This document shows, in pieces, positions 14,342 through 33,404 of a stretch of 64,000 nt of DNA (positions are counted from its first letter, which is position 1; every line of letters begins with the position of its first letter). The DNA comes from an uncultured archaeon (GTDB taxonomy: Archaea; Aenigmatarchaeota; Aenigmatarchaeia; QMZP01; JACQNV01): the NCBI GenBank assembly GCA_964476045.1, contig CAYYYJ010000001.1:50733-114732 (forward strand). The letters run 5' to 3'. The notes beneath the pieces are model-generated. The model saw nothing but the letters and a program-made list of their open reading frames with translations, made no database searches and was not told the origin of the DNA. A program made the translations under genes and the position numbers.

Positions 14342-14893
14342 TTAAAGGAGCTGCCTCGTTATCTCGTAAAAAGTAATGTCCCCTTCATTGTCAACTATAG
14401 CCCAGAGCATGGTAGCCCTGATGGAGTGAGCTAACCTGACAGCCCGCGAGAGCTCTTGAAAACTGCAAGAATAATCTTCTGGGACGCAATATACAATCCA
14501 TCTTGTGTGCTCTGATGGGGCTTTTGGCCCCTTCTTAACAAGAACACCTCTTTGGTAAACGCGGAAATCGCAACCGAATTTGAAGCCTGTTTTGACAACT
14601 AAACCCCTTCCTCTGAGATCCCTGTAAACTGCGTATCTCTCGTGGAATCTTTTGTCCAATTCCGAGCAATATTCAAAAAATGCCTTAAAGCTCATCTTAG
14701 TTTTGCCTTTTTTTACAGAGAGTTTTTTCTTCTCAACTAAATAAGCAGCTTCGACCAGAGCGAGCTCGAGCCTGTCATCTATCCTTTTCCCATAGCTTCT
14801 TTGCTCTAGCTCATCAAAGCCTTTTGAGATAAATAACTTGTTTTCTAAAAGGGTCGCTTCTGGAACCTTTCTGATCTCGTTTTCGGTTGCCAT
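14342..14893 (-). CDS. endA: tRNA-splicing endonuclease (short, alpha-type)
   Basis: Catalytic C-terminal domain YAVYRDLRGRGLVVKTGFKFGCDFRVY; 183 aa. Confidence 0.85.
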   Translation of the reverse strand: MATENEIRKVPEATLLENKLFISKGFDELEQRSYGKRIDDRLELALVEAAYLVEKKKLSVKKGKTKMSFKAFFEYCSELDKRFHERYAVYRDLRGRGLVVKTGFKFGCDFRVYQRGVLVKKGPKAPSEHTRWIVYCVPEDYSCSFQELSRAVRLAHSIRATMLWAIVDNEGDITFYEITRQLL

Positions 14894-14902
14894 ATTACAC
14901 TA

Positions 14903-14913
14903 TTAAATATATA
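14903..14913 (+). promoter_or_regulatory. candidate TATA box (TTAAATATATA) for the tRNA-Asn/tRNA-Phe transcription unit
   Basis: AT-rich TATA-like element 32-42 nt upstream of the tRNA-Asn 5' end. Confidence 0.35.
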
Positions 14914-14944
14914 CTATCTAATTCTATAGATAACTTGCTTAAAA

Positions 14945-15264
14945 GCCTCGGTAGCTCAGCCATATACCCTCTTTCTTTCGAGGAAGGTTGGAAGTTGATT
15001 TGAGACCAATTGGAAAACAAATCAACTTCGTCCCTTTAAGAAAGAGCCTTATAACCCAGAAAGAAAGACGTTACAAGTGGATTATAAGTATGGAGCAACA
15101 GGTAGAGCGATCGACTGTTAATCGATAGGTCGGAGGTTCGAGTGTCTAGCCTTTCTTTAGAAAAGAAAGGCTACAGTACCCAAAGAAACTAGAATTCTTT
15201 GGCACTCGTTGAGATTCCAAAACTCAGAACCCAGAACTCAAGACTGATATTCCTCCCCGAGGCG
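14945..15264 (+). tRNA. tRNA-Asn (anticodon GTT) with two large introns at non-canonical positions (D-loop about 138 nt; T-loop about 108 nt)
   Basis: Acceptor GCCTCGG pairs perfectly with CCGAGGC 313 nt downstream. D-arm: GCTC AGCC | intron | GGTAGAGC. Anticodon arm ATCGA-CTGTTAA-TCGAT is contiguous. Variable loop AGGTC. T-stem GGAGG-TTCGAGT | intron | CCTCC. Discriminator G; no encoded CCA. Confidence 0.75.
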
Positions 15265-15274
15265 CTGAAGAGTC

Positions 15275-15313
15275 GAAACTGATTTTAAAGCAATTGCATC
15301 GAAAATCAGTTTC
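15275..15313 (+). repeat. perfect 12-bp inverted repeat hairpin in the tRNA-Asn/tRNA-Phe spacer
   Basis: GAAACTGATTTT ... AAAATCAGTTTC with a 15-nt loop, between the two tRNA genes. Confidence 0.5.
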
Positions 15314-15323
15314 CGTCTTTCAT

Positions 15324-15475
15324 GGGGGTGTAGCTCAGCACCCTTTTCCTAAAAGCGTGCACGGAAAAGGATGAGCATTGGGAGAGCACACGGCTGAAGA
15401 CGCACCTTTCTTTAAAGAAAGCTGCACCAAAGAATAGACACCGTGGTGTCGGGTGTTCGATCCACCCCACCCCCA
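15324..15475 (+). tRNA. tRNA-Phe (anticodon GAA) with two introns (D-loop about 37 nt; canonical 37/38 about 39 nt)
   Basis: Acceptor GGGGGTG/CACCCCC, discriminator A. D-arm: GCTC AGC | intron | ATTGGGAGAGC. Anticodon arm CACGG-CTGAAGA | intron | CCGTG. Variable loop GTGTC. T-arm GGGTG-TTCGATC-CACCC. Confidence 0.8.
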
Positions 15476-15487
15476 CTTTTTATTTTT

Positions 15488-15775
15488 ATGAAAGAGGTTA
15501 AATCGCCTTTACCAGAAAAGCACATTTTCGTGTGCGTGAACGAACGAGATAGTTCAAAAGATCACTGCTCGAAGGTAGGCGGACTCGAGATCTTTCACAA
15601 AATAAAGGCAAATGTAATGTCGAATGGCCTCGCTTCAAGGGTCTGGGTCACCAAGACAAAATGCCTTGGCTTCTGCAATCCTGTTGGGACTACAATTGCT
15701 GTTTACCCAGAACAGAAGATTTTTACGGAAGTAGGGGTTGAGGAAGTTGATAAATTACTGGAAGATATTTTATAG
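15488..15775 (+). CDS. thioredoxin-like [2Fe-2S] ferredoxin
   Basis: Cys pattern FVCVNERDSSKDHC ... TKCLGFC typical of thioredoxin-like Fd/NuoE family; start moved to MKEVKS to avoid overlap with tRNA-Phe. Confidence 0.6.
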   Translation: MKEVKSPLPEKHIFVCVNERDSSKDHCSKVGGLEIFHKIKANVMSNGLASRVWVTKTKCLGFCNPVGTTIAVYPEQKIFTEVGVEEVDKLLEDIL

Positions 15776-29147: not shown

Positions 29148-30854
29148 ATGCCAAAATTTGAAATAAGCAAATCTGATCTGGAGAAGCTGGTTGGAAAAAA
29201 GTTCACAGCAAAAGAATTAGAGGATGCGCTCTTGTTCGCAAAGACAGAATTGGATGGGCAAAACGGCGACACGCTCAAAGTTGATGTGAAGGATACTAAC
29301 AGGCCTGACCTATGGAGCGTAGAAGGTATTGCGCGAGAGCTCAAAGGCCACTTTAGGATAGAAGAAGGCCTCCCGAAATATAATGTGAAAAAATCTGGCC
29401 TGCAGATTTTTGTTGAAGCAGAGGAATATCACGTACATGCAGTCGGAGTTGTTGTAAAAAATTTAAAAATCGATGATAACGTGCTTTCCCAAATGATACA
29501 ACTACAGGAAAAGGTTGCAGGGACTTTTGGAAGGAACAGGAAAGCACTTTCTATTGGAGCATATGATTTGGGGAAAGTAAAGTTCCCTGTCAAATACGTT
29601 GCAAAAAAACCGCAGGATATAAGGTTCGCTCCTCTCGGTTTTAATAAGGAGATGACTGCGAAAGAGATTTTAGCAAACCACGAAAAAGGTAAACAGTACG
29701 GAGAAATCATAAAAAACGCCAAAACATATAATGTCTGGGAAGACGCTAACAAAAAAATACTTGCTTTCGAGCCAATAATTAATTCCAATGGGGCAGGGAA
29801 TGTGACTACACAAGCTAAAGACATATTTTTAGAGTGCACAGGAGATGACCTGAAACAAATTCAGATAGCAATAAATGTTGTCGCAACAGCACTAGCTGAG
29901 CGAGGCGGGCAAATAGAGTCAATCGAAGTTGTCCACAAAAATAGAAAAACAGCCAGTCCAGATTTGACTCCAAAAAAATCTCACTTGGACCCAGAATATT
30001 GCAGAAAGATTTTAGGTTTGGAGATTTCAGATACTGAAATGGTAAAATTATTGAAAGAGGCTAGGCATGATGCAAAACTAGACAAGAAAAAAATCGGCCA
30101 AGGGACGAAACCGGTCAGCGGACCGATTTCAACCATTTCTGTTGAATATCCTGCTTACAGGAATGACATAATGCACCAGCGCGACCTTGTAGAAGACGTT
30201 GCAATCAGTTTTGGTTATAATGATATAGAGCCAGAGACACCGAAAATTGCTACGATAGGGGCTTCTCACAAACTCGAAGACTTCTCAAATATTATAAGAG
30301 AAATATGCGTTGGTTTGGGTTTGCAGGAAGTCCTGACTTTTACTTTGACAAACAAAGACAATATGTTCAAAAAAATGAATCTGTCGGAAAAGGATCTTGT
30401 TGAAATAGAAAATCCAATGAGCTCGAATTGGTCTGCTTTTAGGGATAAAATAATGCCTAACTCGCTTGACTTCCTAGCTTCTAACAAAAACCAGGATTAT
30501 CCACAGGGAATTTTTGAAGTAGGCGACGTCACGCTTTTAGATCCTTCAAATAAAGATACTGGGGTGACTAATCGCAGGAAGTTTTCTGTAGTTCTCACGA
30601 ATACGCAAATAGGTTATGAAGATGCGTCTTCGCTGCTTTCAGCACTAGTGTCCAGTTTAGGCAAAAAACTGGTTTTAAAGAGAAAAGAGATCTCCTCATT
30701 CATCGCTGGAAGGGCGGCAGAGATTTTTCTGGACAACAAATCAATCGGGATAATAGGCGAGATCCATCCTCAGGTCCTAAATAATTGGAATTTGGAGAAG
30801 CCTGTTGTGGGCTTTGAGATAGATATCGAGTCTCTGCTTGAATTGATACAATAG
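29148..30854 (+). CDS. pheT: phenylalanyl-tRNA synthetase beta subunit (archaeal type)
   Basis: N-terminal B3/B4-like domain (LKVDVKDTNRPDLWSVEGIARE) and catalytic-like C-terminal domain, 568 aa. Confidence 0.9.
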   Translation: MPKFEISKSDLEKLVGKKFTAKELEDALLFAKTELDGQNGDTLKVDVKDTNRPDLWSVEGIARELKGHFRIEEGLPKYNVKKSGLQIFVEAEEYHVHAVGVVVKNLKIDDNVLSQMIQLQEKVAGTFGRNRKALSIGAYDLGKVKFPVKYVAKKPQDIRFAPLGFNKEMTAKEILANHEKGKQYGEIIKNAKTYNVWEDANKKILAFEPIINSNGAGNVTTQAKDIFLECTGDDLKQIQIAINVVATALAERGGQIESIEVVHKNRKTASPDLTPKKSHLDPEYCRKILGLEISDTEMVKLLKEARHDAKLDKKKIGQGTKPVSGPISTISVEYPAYRNDIMHQRDLVEDVAISFGYNDIEPETPKIATIGASHKLEDFSNIIREICVGLGLQEVLTFTLTNKDNMFKKMNLSEKDLVEIENPMSSNWSAFRDKIMPNSLDFLASNKNQDYPQGIFEVGDVTLLDPSNKDTGVTNRRKFSVVLTNTQIGYEDASSLLSALVSSLGKKLVLKRKEISSFIAGRAAEIFLDNKSIGIIGEIHPQVLNNWNLEKPVVGFEIDIESLLELIQ

Positions 30855-32185: not shown

Positions 32186-32944
32186 CTATCTTTTGAGCCA
32201 ACTCAACATATAGACAAATCTCGCCTGGTTTCTTGGCTTTGTTCCTGTTAAAGCAGCTGCAACATTCCTGAATCCAATAGAAGCTTTTGAGCCTGGCTTA
32301 TAGGAGACTAACGGTTTTTTGGCTATCATAGCTTTTCTGAACTCTTTGTCTTCTGGTATAGTGCCTAAGATCTCCATTCCCAAAAACTCTCTAACCTCTT
32401 GAGGATGGATTTCATGCCTATCATTTCTCACCCTATTCAAGACTACACCCAAATTGGTTGTTTCTAGCTTTTCTGTAATTTTCGCGAGTTTCAGAGCATC
32501 TACCATTGCTGGCATCTCTGGGTTTGTAATTGTAATAAGCTCGTCAGCAGCTTCTATTGCTGTGACAGCTTCTTTGCCTAGCCCAGCTGCAGAATCAACT
32601 AGGACAAAATCAAACCCATCTGCTAATTTGTAGAGCACATTGACCAGCTCGCTGGCAGTTGTTTTCGAGAGCCTTGTTATAGACATGTCTGCTGGAAGGA
32701 TTTTTATCCCAGATCTGTCAGCGTAAAGAGCTTCTTTTAGCTTTGCTTCGCCTGATAACACATCCTGAAGAGTTACAGGGTAAAGAGGTATTCCCAGATG
32801 GACCCCGAGATTGGGTGTTGTCAGATTGGCATCAACAGCCACAACTTCCTTTCCTTGCTTTGCAAGGGCAGTTGCGAGGTTGCATACAAAAGTTGTTTTC
32901 CCTGCACCGCCTTTACCAGAAGCAACAGCAATAATTCTTCCCAT
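32186..32944 (-). CDS. minD: MinD/ParA-family P-loop ATPase
   Basis: Deviant Walker A VASGKGGAGKTT; 252 aa. Confidence 0.8.
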   Translation of the reverse strand: MGRIIAVASGKGGAGKTTFVCNLATALAKQGKEVVAVDANLTTPNLGVHLGIPLYPVTLQDVLSGEAKLKEALYADRSGIKILPADMSITRLSKTTASELVNVLYKLADGFDFVLVDSAAGLGKEAVTAIEAADELITITNPEMPAMVDALKLAKITEKLETTNLGVVLNRVRNDRHEIHPQEVREFLGMEILGTIPEDKEFRKAMIAKKPLVSYKPGSKASIGFRNVAAALTGTKPRNQARFVYMLSWLKR

Positions 32945-33136
32945 AAGCCTTTCTTTCTGAAAACTCTGCCCAAAGAAATCCTCAAAGGGACGAAACCGAT
33001 CTTATCCAATTGTTTAGGATCGGTTTCCAACCTTCCCTGGAAAGAAAACATGCAGTGGGTTCCAGATTCACATAATCTAACTATTTCTCCAAGCGGGTTT
33101 ATTAATGTTTGTAAATTTCTATAAAAAAATAAATAA

Positions 33137-33404
33137 CGGACCCGAAGGGATTTCCAGCTAGCCTTCTTTTTTCTAGTGCAGGTCTTTGCATCAGCAAAGA
33201 AGTGCCTTTTCTAAAGAAAAGGCTAGAATTTGAACCCTCGACCTTCAATCCAAAGTTTTCTTCCTTAGGACGGTGCTGCTCTGTCCAAAATGCTCAATTC
33301 TTTCTGGTGCAGCTCTTTCTTTTAAGGGACGAAGCTGATCTTTCAGTGATTGGTCAGGATCAACTTCCTTTCTTCCTCAGAAAGAGGTGCTGAGCTACGG
33401 GCCC
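33137..33404 (-). tRNA. tRNA-Ala-like gene with multiple introns; anticodon arm not resolved by eye (possibly a third intron or a pseudogene)
   Basis: Minus strand: acceptor GGGCCCG-TA-GCTC-AGC at the 5' end pairs with CGGGTCC plus G at the 3' end, including a G3:U70 pair (Ala identity). T-arm GAGGG-TTCAAAT | intron | CCCTT. D-loop and T-loop insertions share modules with the tRNA-Asn introns. Confidence 0.45.

Follow-up and report, generated by a model that had tools for sequence, protein, structure and literature searches.

A single-unit EndA with an L3-type basic loop beside multiply interrupted tRNA genes in an uncultured member of the Aenigmatarchaeota

The EndA gene and its neighboring tRNA genes

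The 64,000-nucleotide stretch analyzed here (the window), taken from contig CAYYYJ010000001.1 of an uncultured archaeon of the phylum Aenigmatarchaeota, encodes a tRNA-splicing endonuclease (EndA, a tRNA-intron lyase), and the 549-nt gap upstream of this gene was read as holding two interrupted genes, for tRNA-Asn and tRNA-Phe, that lie on the opposite strand and diverge from it, the enzyme gene and its presumed substrates being contained within ~600 bp (Table 1). The present analysis concerns the means by which so small an enzyme might recognize introns that depart from the strict bulge-helix-bulge (BHB) motif, for which a lone homotetramer (α4) with specificity broadened by a basic loop is the explanation that we favor, with some reservation.

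The open reading frame (ORF), its Pfam domains and its score against the NCBIfam endA equivalog model TIGR00324 (116.9 bits, above the cut-off of 59.6) all agree with the initial annotation, which had placed a 183-residue EndA with a catalytic motif beside disrupted tRNA genes; the same annotation had called the protein single-domain, which holds in so far as there is one α unit but is loosely worded, as this unit comprises two Pfam domains. Residues 102-113 read TGFKFGCDFRVY, and alignment with the two-unit NCBIfam model placed the protein on its catalytic half. The nearest homologs, 60-100% identical, come from metagenome-assembled Aenigmarchaeota or Aenigmatarchaeota, a DPANN phylum, and a 137.5-kb NCBI contig encodes a protein of exactly the same sequence. 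Among solved structures, the top sequence matches were the fused enzyme of Methanopyrus kandleri, the α4 enzyme of Methanocaldococcus jannaschii and the α subunit of Nanoarchaeum equitans. Modeling of the structure and inspection of its specificity loop, both of which had been proposed at the outset, gave two results: the AlphaFold2 monomer model (predicted local distance difference test score, pLDDT, 82.8) was closest to the M. jannaschii α4 structure 1a79_A (template-modeling score 0.84, root-mean-square deviation 2.2 Å, 38% identity), and an insertion was found at the site of loop L3, as described below. In a phmmer alignment with 1a79 the N-terminal domain showed a gap of one residue only, and this collinearity with the loop-less M. 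jannaschii enzyme indicates that the protein has neither an L1 (crenarchaea-specific loop, CSL) nor an L2 (ARMAN-specific loop, ASL) insertion; in particular, no crenarchaea-type L1 was found in the N-terminal domain in this alignment. The ε2 architecture, a three-unit protomer of ~390 amino acids with the ASL, was likewise not matched by this single unit, with which the catalytic unit alone of the ARMAN-2 enzyme (4fz2) aligns. In 175 α relatives (90% clusters), Arg153 and Arg159 are conserved without exception, as are Tyr113 and His129, and the two RNA-clamping residues, Arg153 and Arg180, are both present.

With regard to the tRNA genes, neither ARAGORN, run with and without its intron option, nor Rfam (gathering threshold and E<=1) returned a tRNA or any other RNA gene in the 64 kb. 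When the stretch that holds the two genes was scanned for strict BHB motifs (4/4 central helix, both flanks of at least 2 bp), no match fell at a sensible splice site, and the exons were therefore set by comparison with orthologs; when spliced in silico, both genes were called by ARAGORN, as tRNA-Asn(gtt) and tRNA-Phe(gaa). The arrangement of EndA, tRNA-Asn and tRNA-Phe recurs in three relatives (L003, L005 and L007), in which EndA is 75-83% identical and the introns are found at other positions, namely 22/23, 27/28, 30/31, 37/38, 42-45 and 53/54. Once the introns are removed, tRNA-Asn and tRNA-Phe have the same sequence across the four genomes or deviate at a few residues only; among these deviations are paired stem changes, such as the compensatory exchange of G2-C71 and A2-U71 in the acceptor stem.

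The 20 introns of the Asn/Phe locus in the window and these three relatives were scored for the BHB motif, with the 3′ side displaced as control. The 4-bp central helix was found to be full in 11 of the 20 and to have at least three pairs in 18, as compared with 3% and 24%, respectively, of the displaced controls. The strict motif (hBHBh′), with a perfect central helix and both flanking helices, was formed by 4 of the 20 and by none of the four in the window; when the third, tentative tRNA gene described below is included, the window has seven introns in three genes, none of them strict. Since the window introns lack the outer helix, lack the inner helix or are mismatched, relaxed recognition is needed, just as the initial annotation had held of the tRNAs beside EndA, and a set of strict motifs, which would have spoken against that view, was looked for in all four introns and not found.

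The order of EndA, tRNA-Asn and tRNA-Phe is conserved in Aenigmatarchaeota, being divergent in the clade of the window and co-directional in CP070801.1, and even in distant members of the phylum tRNA-Asn and/or tRNA-Phe, with or without introns, adjoin the EndA gene, so that the enzyme and part of its substrates are encoded side by side. The introns change fast in number and position between close relatives, the 20 introns falling at ~10 positions, with up to four in tRNA-Phe.

Table 1 Features of the EndA locus and related loci. Coordinates are those of the window unless preceded by the label of another locus.
Feature	Coordinates	Strand	Basis or description
EndA (tRNA-intron lyase) α unit, 183 aa	14342..14893	minus	ORF; PF02778 and PF01974; TIGR00324; AlphaFold2 model
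EndA N-terminal domain, residues 13-73	14675..14857	minus	Pfam tRNA_int_endo_N (PF02778), E 6.5e-15; collinear with M. jannaschii
EndA catalytic C-terminal domain, residues 83-175	14369..14647	minus	Pfam tRNA_int_endo (PF01974), E 1.1e-28
Catalytic Tyr113	14555..14557	minus	Aligns with M. jannaschii Y115; invariant in 175/175 α relatives
L3 insertion, residues 114-128, QRGVLVKKGPKAPSE, between Tyr113 and His129	14510..14554	minus	Alignments; literature definition of L3 / NEQ loop
Lys124 in L3, candidate substitute for the lost catalytic Lys	14522..14524	minus	Invariant; co-varies with loss of canonical Lys among representative clusters
Catalytic His129	14507..14509	minus	Aligns with M. jannaschii H125; invariant in 175/175 α relatives
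Ala160 at canonical catalytic Lys position	14414..14416	minus	Five PDB alignments; Ala in 175/175 α relatives
L10-type acidic assembly loop, V167-D-N-E-G-D-I173, followed by C-terminal β-strand	14375..14395	minus	Aligns with M. jannaschii AIVDADGDIVYY
tRNA-Asn(GTT), exons 14945-14959, 15099-15142, 15251-15264	14945..15264	plus	Exons by hand; ortholog check; ARAGORN on spliced sequence
tRNA-Asn intron 15/16 (D-loop), 139 nt	14960..15098	plus	Central helix (H) GCUC/GAGC 4/4, inner helix 5 bp, no outer helix: HBh′, relaxed
tRNA-Asn intron 59/60 (T-loop), 108 nt	15143..15250	plus	Outer helix = T stem, 5 bp; H 3/4 (U.U); inner helix 4 bp
tRNA-Phe(GAA), exons 15324-15338, 15379-15399, 15440-15475	15324..15475	plus	Ortholog comparison; ARAGORN on spliced sequence
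tRNA-Phe intron 15/16 (D-loop), 40 nt	15339..15378	plus	H GCUC/GAGC 4/4, no outer helix, inner helix 1 + 8 bp around one mismatch: HBh′
tRNA-Phe intron 37/38, 40 nt	15400..15439	plus	Outer helix = anticodon stem; H 3/4 (A.A); no adjacent inner helix: hBH, relaxed
Tentative tRNA-Arg(CCU), exons 33404-33390, 33289-33263, 33247-33229, 33150-33137	33137..33404	minus	Sequence reading; inverted-repeat links to Asn/Phe locus; ARAGORN on spliced construct
Hairpin element, copies	14975-15050; 33310-33385; 32960-33075; weaker match near 30087-30116	plus; minus; minus;	
EndA-adjacent tRNA stretches	window 14894-15475; L003 2435-2850; L005 2680-2950; L007 2670-2950; L091 1994-2451		
Tandem β-like + α loci	L009 2501-3564; L012 2501-3566; L015-L038 (14 loci)		

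The L3 loop, the assembly loop and the catalytic lysine

Ahead of the catalytic His, the loop is longer in the window EndA than in M. jannaschii, the spacing from Tyr to His being 16 as against 10, and the six additional residues are the basic stretch V-K-K-G-P-K (119-124), as is seen when YQRGVLVKKGPKAPSEH is set against YERGANIDKEH of M. jannaschii. The same loop aligns residue for residue with YDIGVIPKKGKRSEREH of the N. equitans α subunit, which is equal in length and shares the KKG core (VKKGPKAPSEH in the window, PKKGKRSEREH in N. equitans). Among the α relatives, G122, P123 and K124 are invariant and K120 is nearly so, the GPK triplet being kept in 175/175. In N. equitans, residues 90-98 of this NEQ loop, with K93, K94, K96 and R97, adjoin the catalytic triad (Hirata et al. 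2012; PMC3488258); there, a role of the loop in broad specificity was offered as a proposal or expectation, the proposed action being to keep imperfect bulges close to the active site. The NEQ-specific loop was renamed L3 by Kaneta et al. (2018), according to whom L3-bearing α4-type EndAs in several DPANN lineages go along with more tRNA gene disruption, and the type of subunit contributes least among the contributors to substrate specificity (PMC5829648). In the light of these enzymes from DPANN archaea with disrupted tRNA genes, the premise that an EndA of α4 size is necessarily strict, from which the initial annotation had started, is outdated (PMC5829648). The conflict between a small enzyme and relaxed substrates is real, yet it has been largely anticipated in the literature, where the paradox had been recognized as a correlation across genomes. 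The literature searched yielded no biochemical test of an α4 EndA with L3, and the main text of Kaneta et al. mentions no such test, no loss of the catalytic Lys and no β-like paralog in Aenigmatarchaeota (PMC5829648).

Tetramer assembly of EndA relies on a second loop, L10 (PMC6379350). In the window EndA, L10 and the strand that follows it read AIVDNEGDITFY and match M. jannaschii. The L10 signature was also found in structural units, namely the β unit of M. kandleri (MKA), the βC unit of ARMAN-2 and the N-terminal repeat of Archaeoglobus fulgidus (AF), and is absent from N. equitans α.

Of the catalytic triad Tyr-His-Lys, the window EndA has the first two residues and lacks the Lys at its canonical position on helix α5, where Ala160 is found. 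The equivalent residues are K156 in M. jannaschii, K334 in MKA, K282 in ARMAN-2 and K287 in AF, and the surrounding motif, AHS-V-R-K in the classical enzymes, reads AHSIRAT in the window; the alignment at this site has no gaps nearby and a high posterior probability. In a few more distant α subunits, the position corresponding to residue 160 is Ser or Thr. When 150 representative clusters (at most 50% identity) were compared, the canonical Lys was retained by nearly every catalytic unit, and its loss was seen together with one form of L3. Thus, L3 with G-[PQE]-K is accompanied by loss of the canonical Lys in the window and in P0122, P0123, P0125, P0128, P0136, P0216, P0196, P0121 and P0238, whereas the N. 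equitans-like L3, with Arg at Tyr+11, is accompanied by its retention in NEQ205, P0157, P0207 and P0269; the exceptions are P0146, P0217 and P0249, which have no L3 and have lost the Lys (Thr). This co-variation of Lys124 with the canonical Lys probably reflects a single evolutionary event rather than many. Since the K282A mutation abolishes the activity of ARMAN-2 EndA (PMC3488258), loss of the Lys throughout a clade calls for compensation, and the sequences suggest Lys124, five residues ahead of the catalytic His, as the obvious candidate. Loss of the catalytic Lys in an EndA was not found mentioned in the literature examined. It is to be noted that P0121, the best match in a search of 1.84 billion representative proteins, is a two-unit, α′2-like EndA of 360 amino acids; its C-terminal unit has L3 (VKLKRGQKSPDEH) with Ser for the canonical Lys and its N-terminal unit retains Tyr and His, and the pairing of L3 with Lys loss is thus also seen in a fused architecture.

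Subunit composition and breadth of intron recognition

The reading to which we give the greater credence, with the homotetrameric state and the role of L3 both inferred, is that the window EndA is a lone α4 enzyme whose specificity is broadened by L3. The ORF would then be the sole EndA subunit that the organism needs, one chain carrying the catalytic elements (Tyr113, His129, Arg153 and Arg180) as well as the assembly elements (the acidic L10, D168-N-E-G-D172, and the C-terminal strand); because a single chain holds both, the enzyme is most likely an α4 homotetramer similar to that of M. jannaschii. L3 would offer extra basic contacts beside the active site and so permit cleavage of bulges that fall short of one flanking helix, and the relaxed BHB motifs of the D-loop, T-loop and anticodon loop would be cut thanks to these six additional residues in the His-carrying loop. 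As a further step, Lys124 of L3 may supply the active-site lysine that is absent at Ala160.

Comparison with known systems places the window EndA closest to the L3-bearing α4-type class of Kaneta et al., a class inferred bioinformatically and described from DPANN and Hadesarchaea, with a single α gene, L3, no L1 or L2, and disrupted tRNA genes (PMC5829648); the window protein indeed combines a single polypeptide that bears Y113, H129 and L10, a basic insertion in the His-carrying loop and a host from DPANN, many of whose tRNA genes are disrupted. With M. jannaschii (1A79) it shares an α unit of ~180 amino acids with two domains, the Tyr and His, an L10 of the form AIVD-x-x-GD-I-x-[YF]Y, a C-terminal Arg rather than Trp and a collinear N-terminal domain; it differs in the basic L3, the Ala for the catalytic Lys, W132 and W164, and in that the M. 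jannaschii enzyme is strict while the presumed substrates here are relaxed and non-canonically placed (PMC3488258). With the (αβ)2 enzyme of N. equitans (NEQ205 and NEQ261; 3IEY) it shares the spacing of 16 and the KKG core of L3, with a basic residue standing at Tyr+11 and an EH-x-[KR]-W motif following the loop. Both hosts belong to DPANN, their tRNA genes are much disrupted, and cleavage at BHB motifs that are not canonical is documented or expected in them. NEQ205, on the other hand, has no L10, needs its β partner NEQ261, keeps the canonical Lys (RKK), and has Arg where the window has Lys at Tyr+11 and Trp where the window has Arg180. The ε2 enzyme of ARMAN-2 (4FZ2, 9W2K) is similar in its DPANN origin, in its broad specificity and in having residues 240-247 inserted where L3 is found, but is a three-unit protomer of 390 amino acids that owes its specificity to Lys161 of the ASL (L2), and in which the L3 lysines are dispensable and the canonical Lys282 essential (PMC3488258). 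Finally, the crenarchaeal (αβ)2 enzymes with CSL (Aeropyrum pernix, Pyrobaculum aerophilum and Sulfolobus tokodaii) process multiple introns of the D-arm, T-arm and other sites, and their specificity is set by a basic residue, which a loop specific to the lineage holds beside the active site (PMC5829648, PMC6379350). They differ in that this residue, Lys44, is on L1 in the N-terminal domain and a β subunit is required, whereas the window EndA is without CSL and no β was found in the 64 kb.

The initial annotation had framed the choice as one between a hidden β subunit and a small EndA of broadened specificity, a dichotomy that proved sound, with the evidence favoring the latter branch. The former, an (αβ)2 heterotetramer of the kind known from N. 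equitans and Crenarchaeota, in which the heteromeric build would go with the broad specificity and the gene for the structural β would lie outside the 64 kb, appears unlikely, even though N. equitans does combine L3 with a β subunit. The proposed search for a second EndA was carried out within the 64 kb, which corresponds to ~6% of a DPANN-sized genome of ~1 Mb; on scanning all ORFs read from stop to stop that reach 40 amino acids (657 in total) with three profile hidden Markov models (clade, α plus β, and a broad one of 252 catalytic and structural units), only the window EndA was found and no second EndA-like ORF. Candidates for a β subunit did emerge from the above search of 1.84 billion representative proteins, as a family of at least 62 His-less EndA relatives of 161-176 amino acids in a sister lineage of Aenigmatarchaeota. 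These β-like proteins keep the Tyr and L10, have a variable residue for the His, no L3 (spacing 10-11) and GFK-G in place of GFKFG, and align to the structural half of the two-unit NCBIfam model. The family is therefore real, but its distribution speaks against a hidden partner here. A scan of a genome collection, as judged from the matches listed over 600 stretches (455 relatives), showed the β-like gene in 14 species-representative loci, about 15 of the 455 relatives listed, and directly upstream of an α partner with spacing 17 in all 13 listed loci with enough flank, as well as in L009-L014. By comparison, the spacing-16 α genes of the window type, 53 non-redundant ones among those listed, are all alone within 2.5 kb, including those on a closed 1.05-Mb chromosome (CP070801.1, L091) and a 918-kb contig (L057); no β-like gene was found in the window or at the EndA loci of L003, L005 and L007. 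A further 17 listed α genes with spacing 17 are also alone, and among the matches listed no genome prefix combined a lone α with a separate β locus. The β subunit is also disfavored by the retention in the window α of L10, which is lost in the α subunits of N. equitans-type heterotetramers, and by the small contribution of subunit type to specificity for which Kaneta et al. argue (PMC5829648). In a neighbor-joining tree, built without support values, the β-like proteins are sister to the spacing-17 α subunits and the window falls in a separate spacing-16 clade with CP070801.1; the tandem β-α pair looks like a separate duplication origin of an (αβ)2-type enzyme within DPANN. It also bears on the role of L3, since the His-less paralog has lost L3 but kept L10, which ties L3 to the function of the active site and not to assembly.

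A second alternative, which we hold to be rather improbable, is that the enzyme is an ordinary strict α4 in which L3 is irrelevant to specificity, and that each site is brought into a near-canonical BHB geometry in vivo by the folded tRNA body, by the order of splicing or by another protein, for instance an RNA chaperone. The introns do keep the core geometry, with a 4-nt central helix and 3-nt bulges and the high scores of that helix given above, and the T-loop introns have both flanking helices with one mismatch only. In addition, the loop-less M. kandleri EndA is described by Kaneta et al. as removing an HBh′ D-arm intron, albeit inefficiently (PMC5829648), and the L3 lysine mutants of ARMAN-2 had no phenotype (PMC3488258). 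However, the 15/16 D-loop introns cannot form any outer helix, and the characterized α4 and α′2 enzymes leave such motifs uncut (PMC3488258). Moreover, a neutral loop is hard to reconcile with the presence of L3 in 175/175 catalytic relatives and its deletion in the paralog that lacks catalysis. Lastly, although the standard tools miss these tRNA genes, it is very improbable that they are decaying pseudogenes for which relaxed recognition is unneeded, given mature Asn and Phe sequences that are near-identical in four genomes despite differing intron positions, the compensatory acceptor-stem change, spliced sequences that fold as canonical tRNAs, an intron-less tRNA-Asn in the same syntenic slot of CP070801.1 and the strong BHB signal at the splice sites.

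Several points nonetheless weigh against a lone α4 enzyme broadened by L3. The widening of specificity by L3 is argued from genomic correlation and by analogy, and in ARMAN-2 the L3 mutants K241A and K244A behaved as wild type (PMC3488258). The search for a partner covered 64 kb of a ~1-Mb genome and the relatives among the matches listed, and a very divergent β, such as one similar to NEQ261, would slip past a survey at the level of the clade. Furthermore, the canonical catalytic Lys is lacking, and activity of the lone enzyme would depend on its putative compensation. For the last of these points a more far-reaching model can be put forward, although as a tentative suggestion that we would not ourselves call probable. 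The active site may have been rewired, with Lys124 replacing the lost Lys, and L3 might then serve both catalysis and the accommodation of imperfect bulges, through which a one-gene homotetramer would have gained the broad specificity known otherwise from heteromeric or three-unit enzymes; the N. equitans-type L3, with Arg in place of Lys124 and seen together with the canonical Lys, would represent an intermediate state.

A third tRNA gene, shared intron elements and implications

A third disrupted tRNA gene in the window was tentatively read as tRNA-Arg(CCU), with putative introns at 15/16 (100 nt), 40/41 (15 nt) and 59/60 (78 nt). The splice in the anticodon arm is the least certain: brute-force removal of one segment of the middle exon gave many ARAGORN 'solutions', and the Arg(CCU) reading was picked because its splice site yields a 4/4 central helix. 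On this reading, all three tRNA genes in the window have two to three introns each. A hairpin element of ~75 nt, GGAAGTTGAT...loop...ATCAACTTCGTCCCTT, flanked by CTTTCT and AGAAAG, occurs in the D-loop intron both of tRNA-Asn and of the putative tRNA-Arg, and the T-loop introns of the same two genes open identically (TCTAGCCTTTCTTTAGAAAAG). A third copy of the hairpin lies outside any recognizable tRNA, just upstream of an ORF that starts at 32942 on the minus strand, and the element had no match in Rfam. These shared sequences suggest that the introns are related and possibly mobile, or else that the element is a small structured RNA. A pattern search for a CTTTCTTT...AAAGAAAG hairpin gave one clean match, barely above shuffled sequences, and was dropped in favor of the longer shared element.

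Two further observations were made around tRNA-Phe. In one relative, an ORF of 239-243 amino acids with a weak Pfam match to LAGLIDADG_3 and hence homing-endonuclease-like (L005 1991-2710; L006 145-876) adjoins the intron-rich tRNA-Phe; the window has no such gene there. In the window, the ORF at 15443-15775 on the plus strand has, as the longest ORF, a GTG start inside the 3′ end of tRNA-Phe (15443-15475), and the true start of the gene is probably an ATG a few bases past the tRNA.

According to the usual teaching, the homotetrameric EndA is strict, and broad specificity needs an (αβ)2 or ε2 enzyme with a CSL or ASL; that L3 may do the work of these loops in a plain α4 enzyme has so far been a matter of genomic correlation. 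The locus offers a compact case, in which one 183-residue protein lies near D-loop, T-loop and 37/38 introns, none of them strict, and the dead duplicate without L3 in the sister lineage serves as a natural control. The invariant loss of the canonical Lys with an invariant Lys in the loop, and the tandem β-α duplication of the sister lineage, add to its value as an experimental target. As ARAGORN and Rfam miss all three tRNA genes in the window, automatic counts will put the tRNA complements of such DPANN genomes far too low. The EndA family is ancient and is shared with the eukaryotic TSEN. If the lone EndA cuts these introns, subunit architecture and specificity would be uncoupled in this family, and if Lys124 replaces the canonical Lys, a catalytic residue would have migrated onto the specificity loop.

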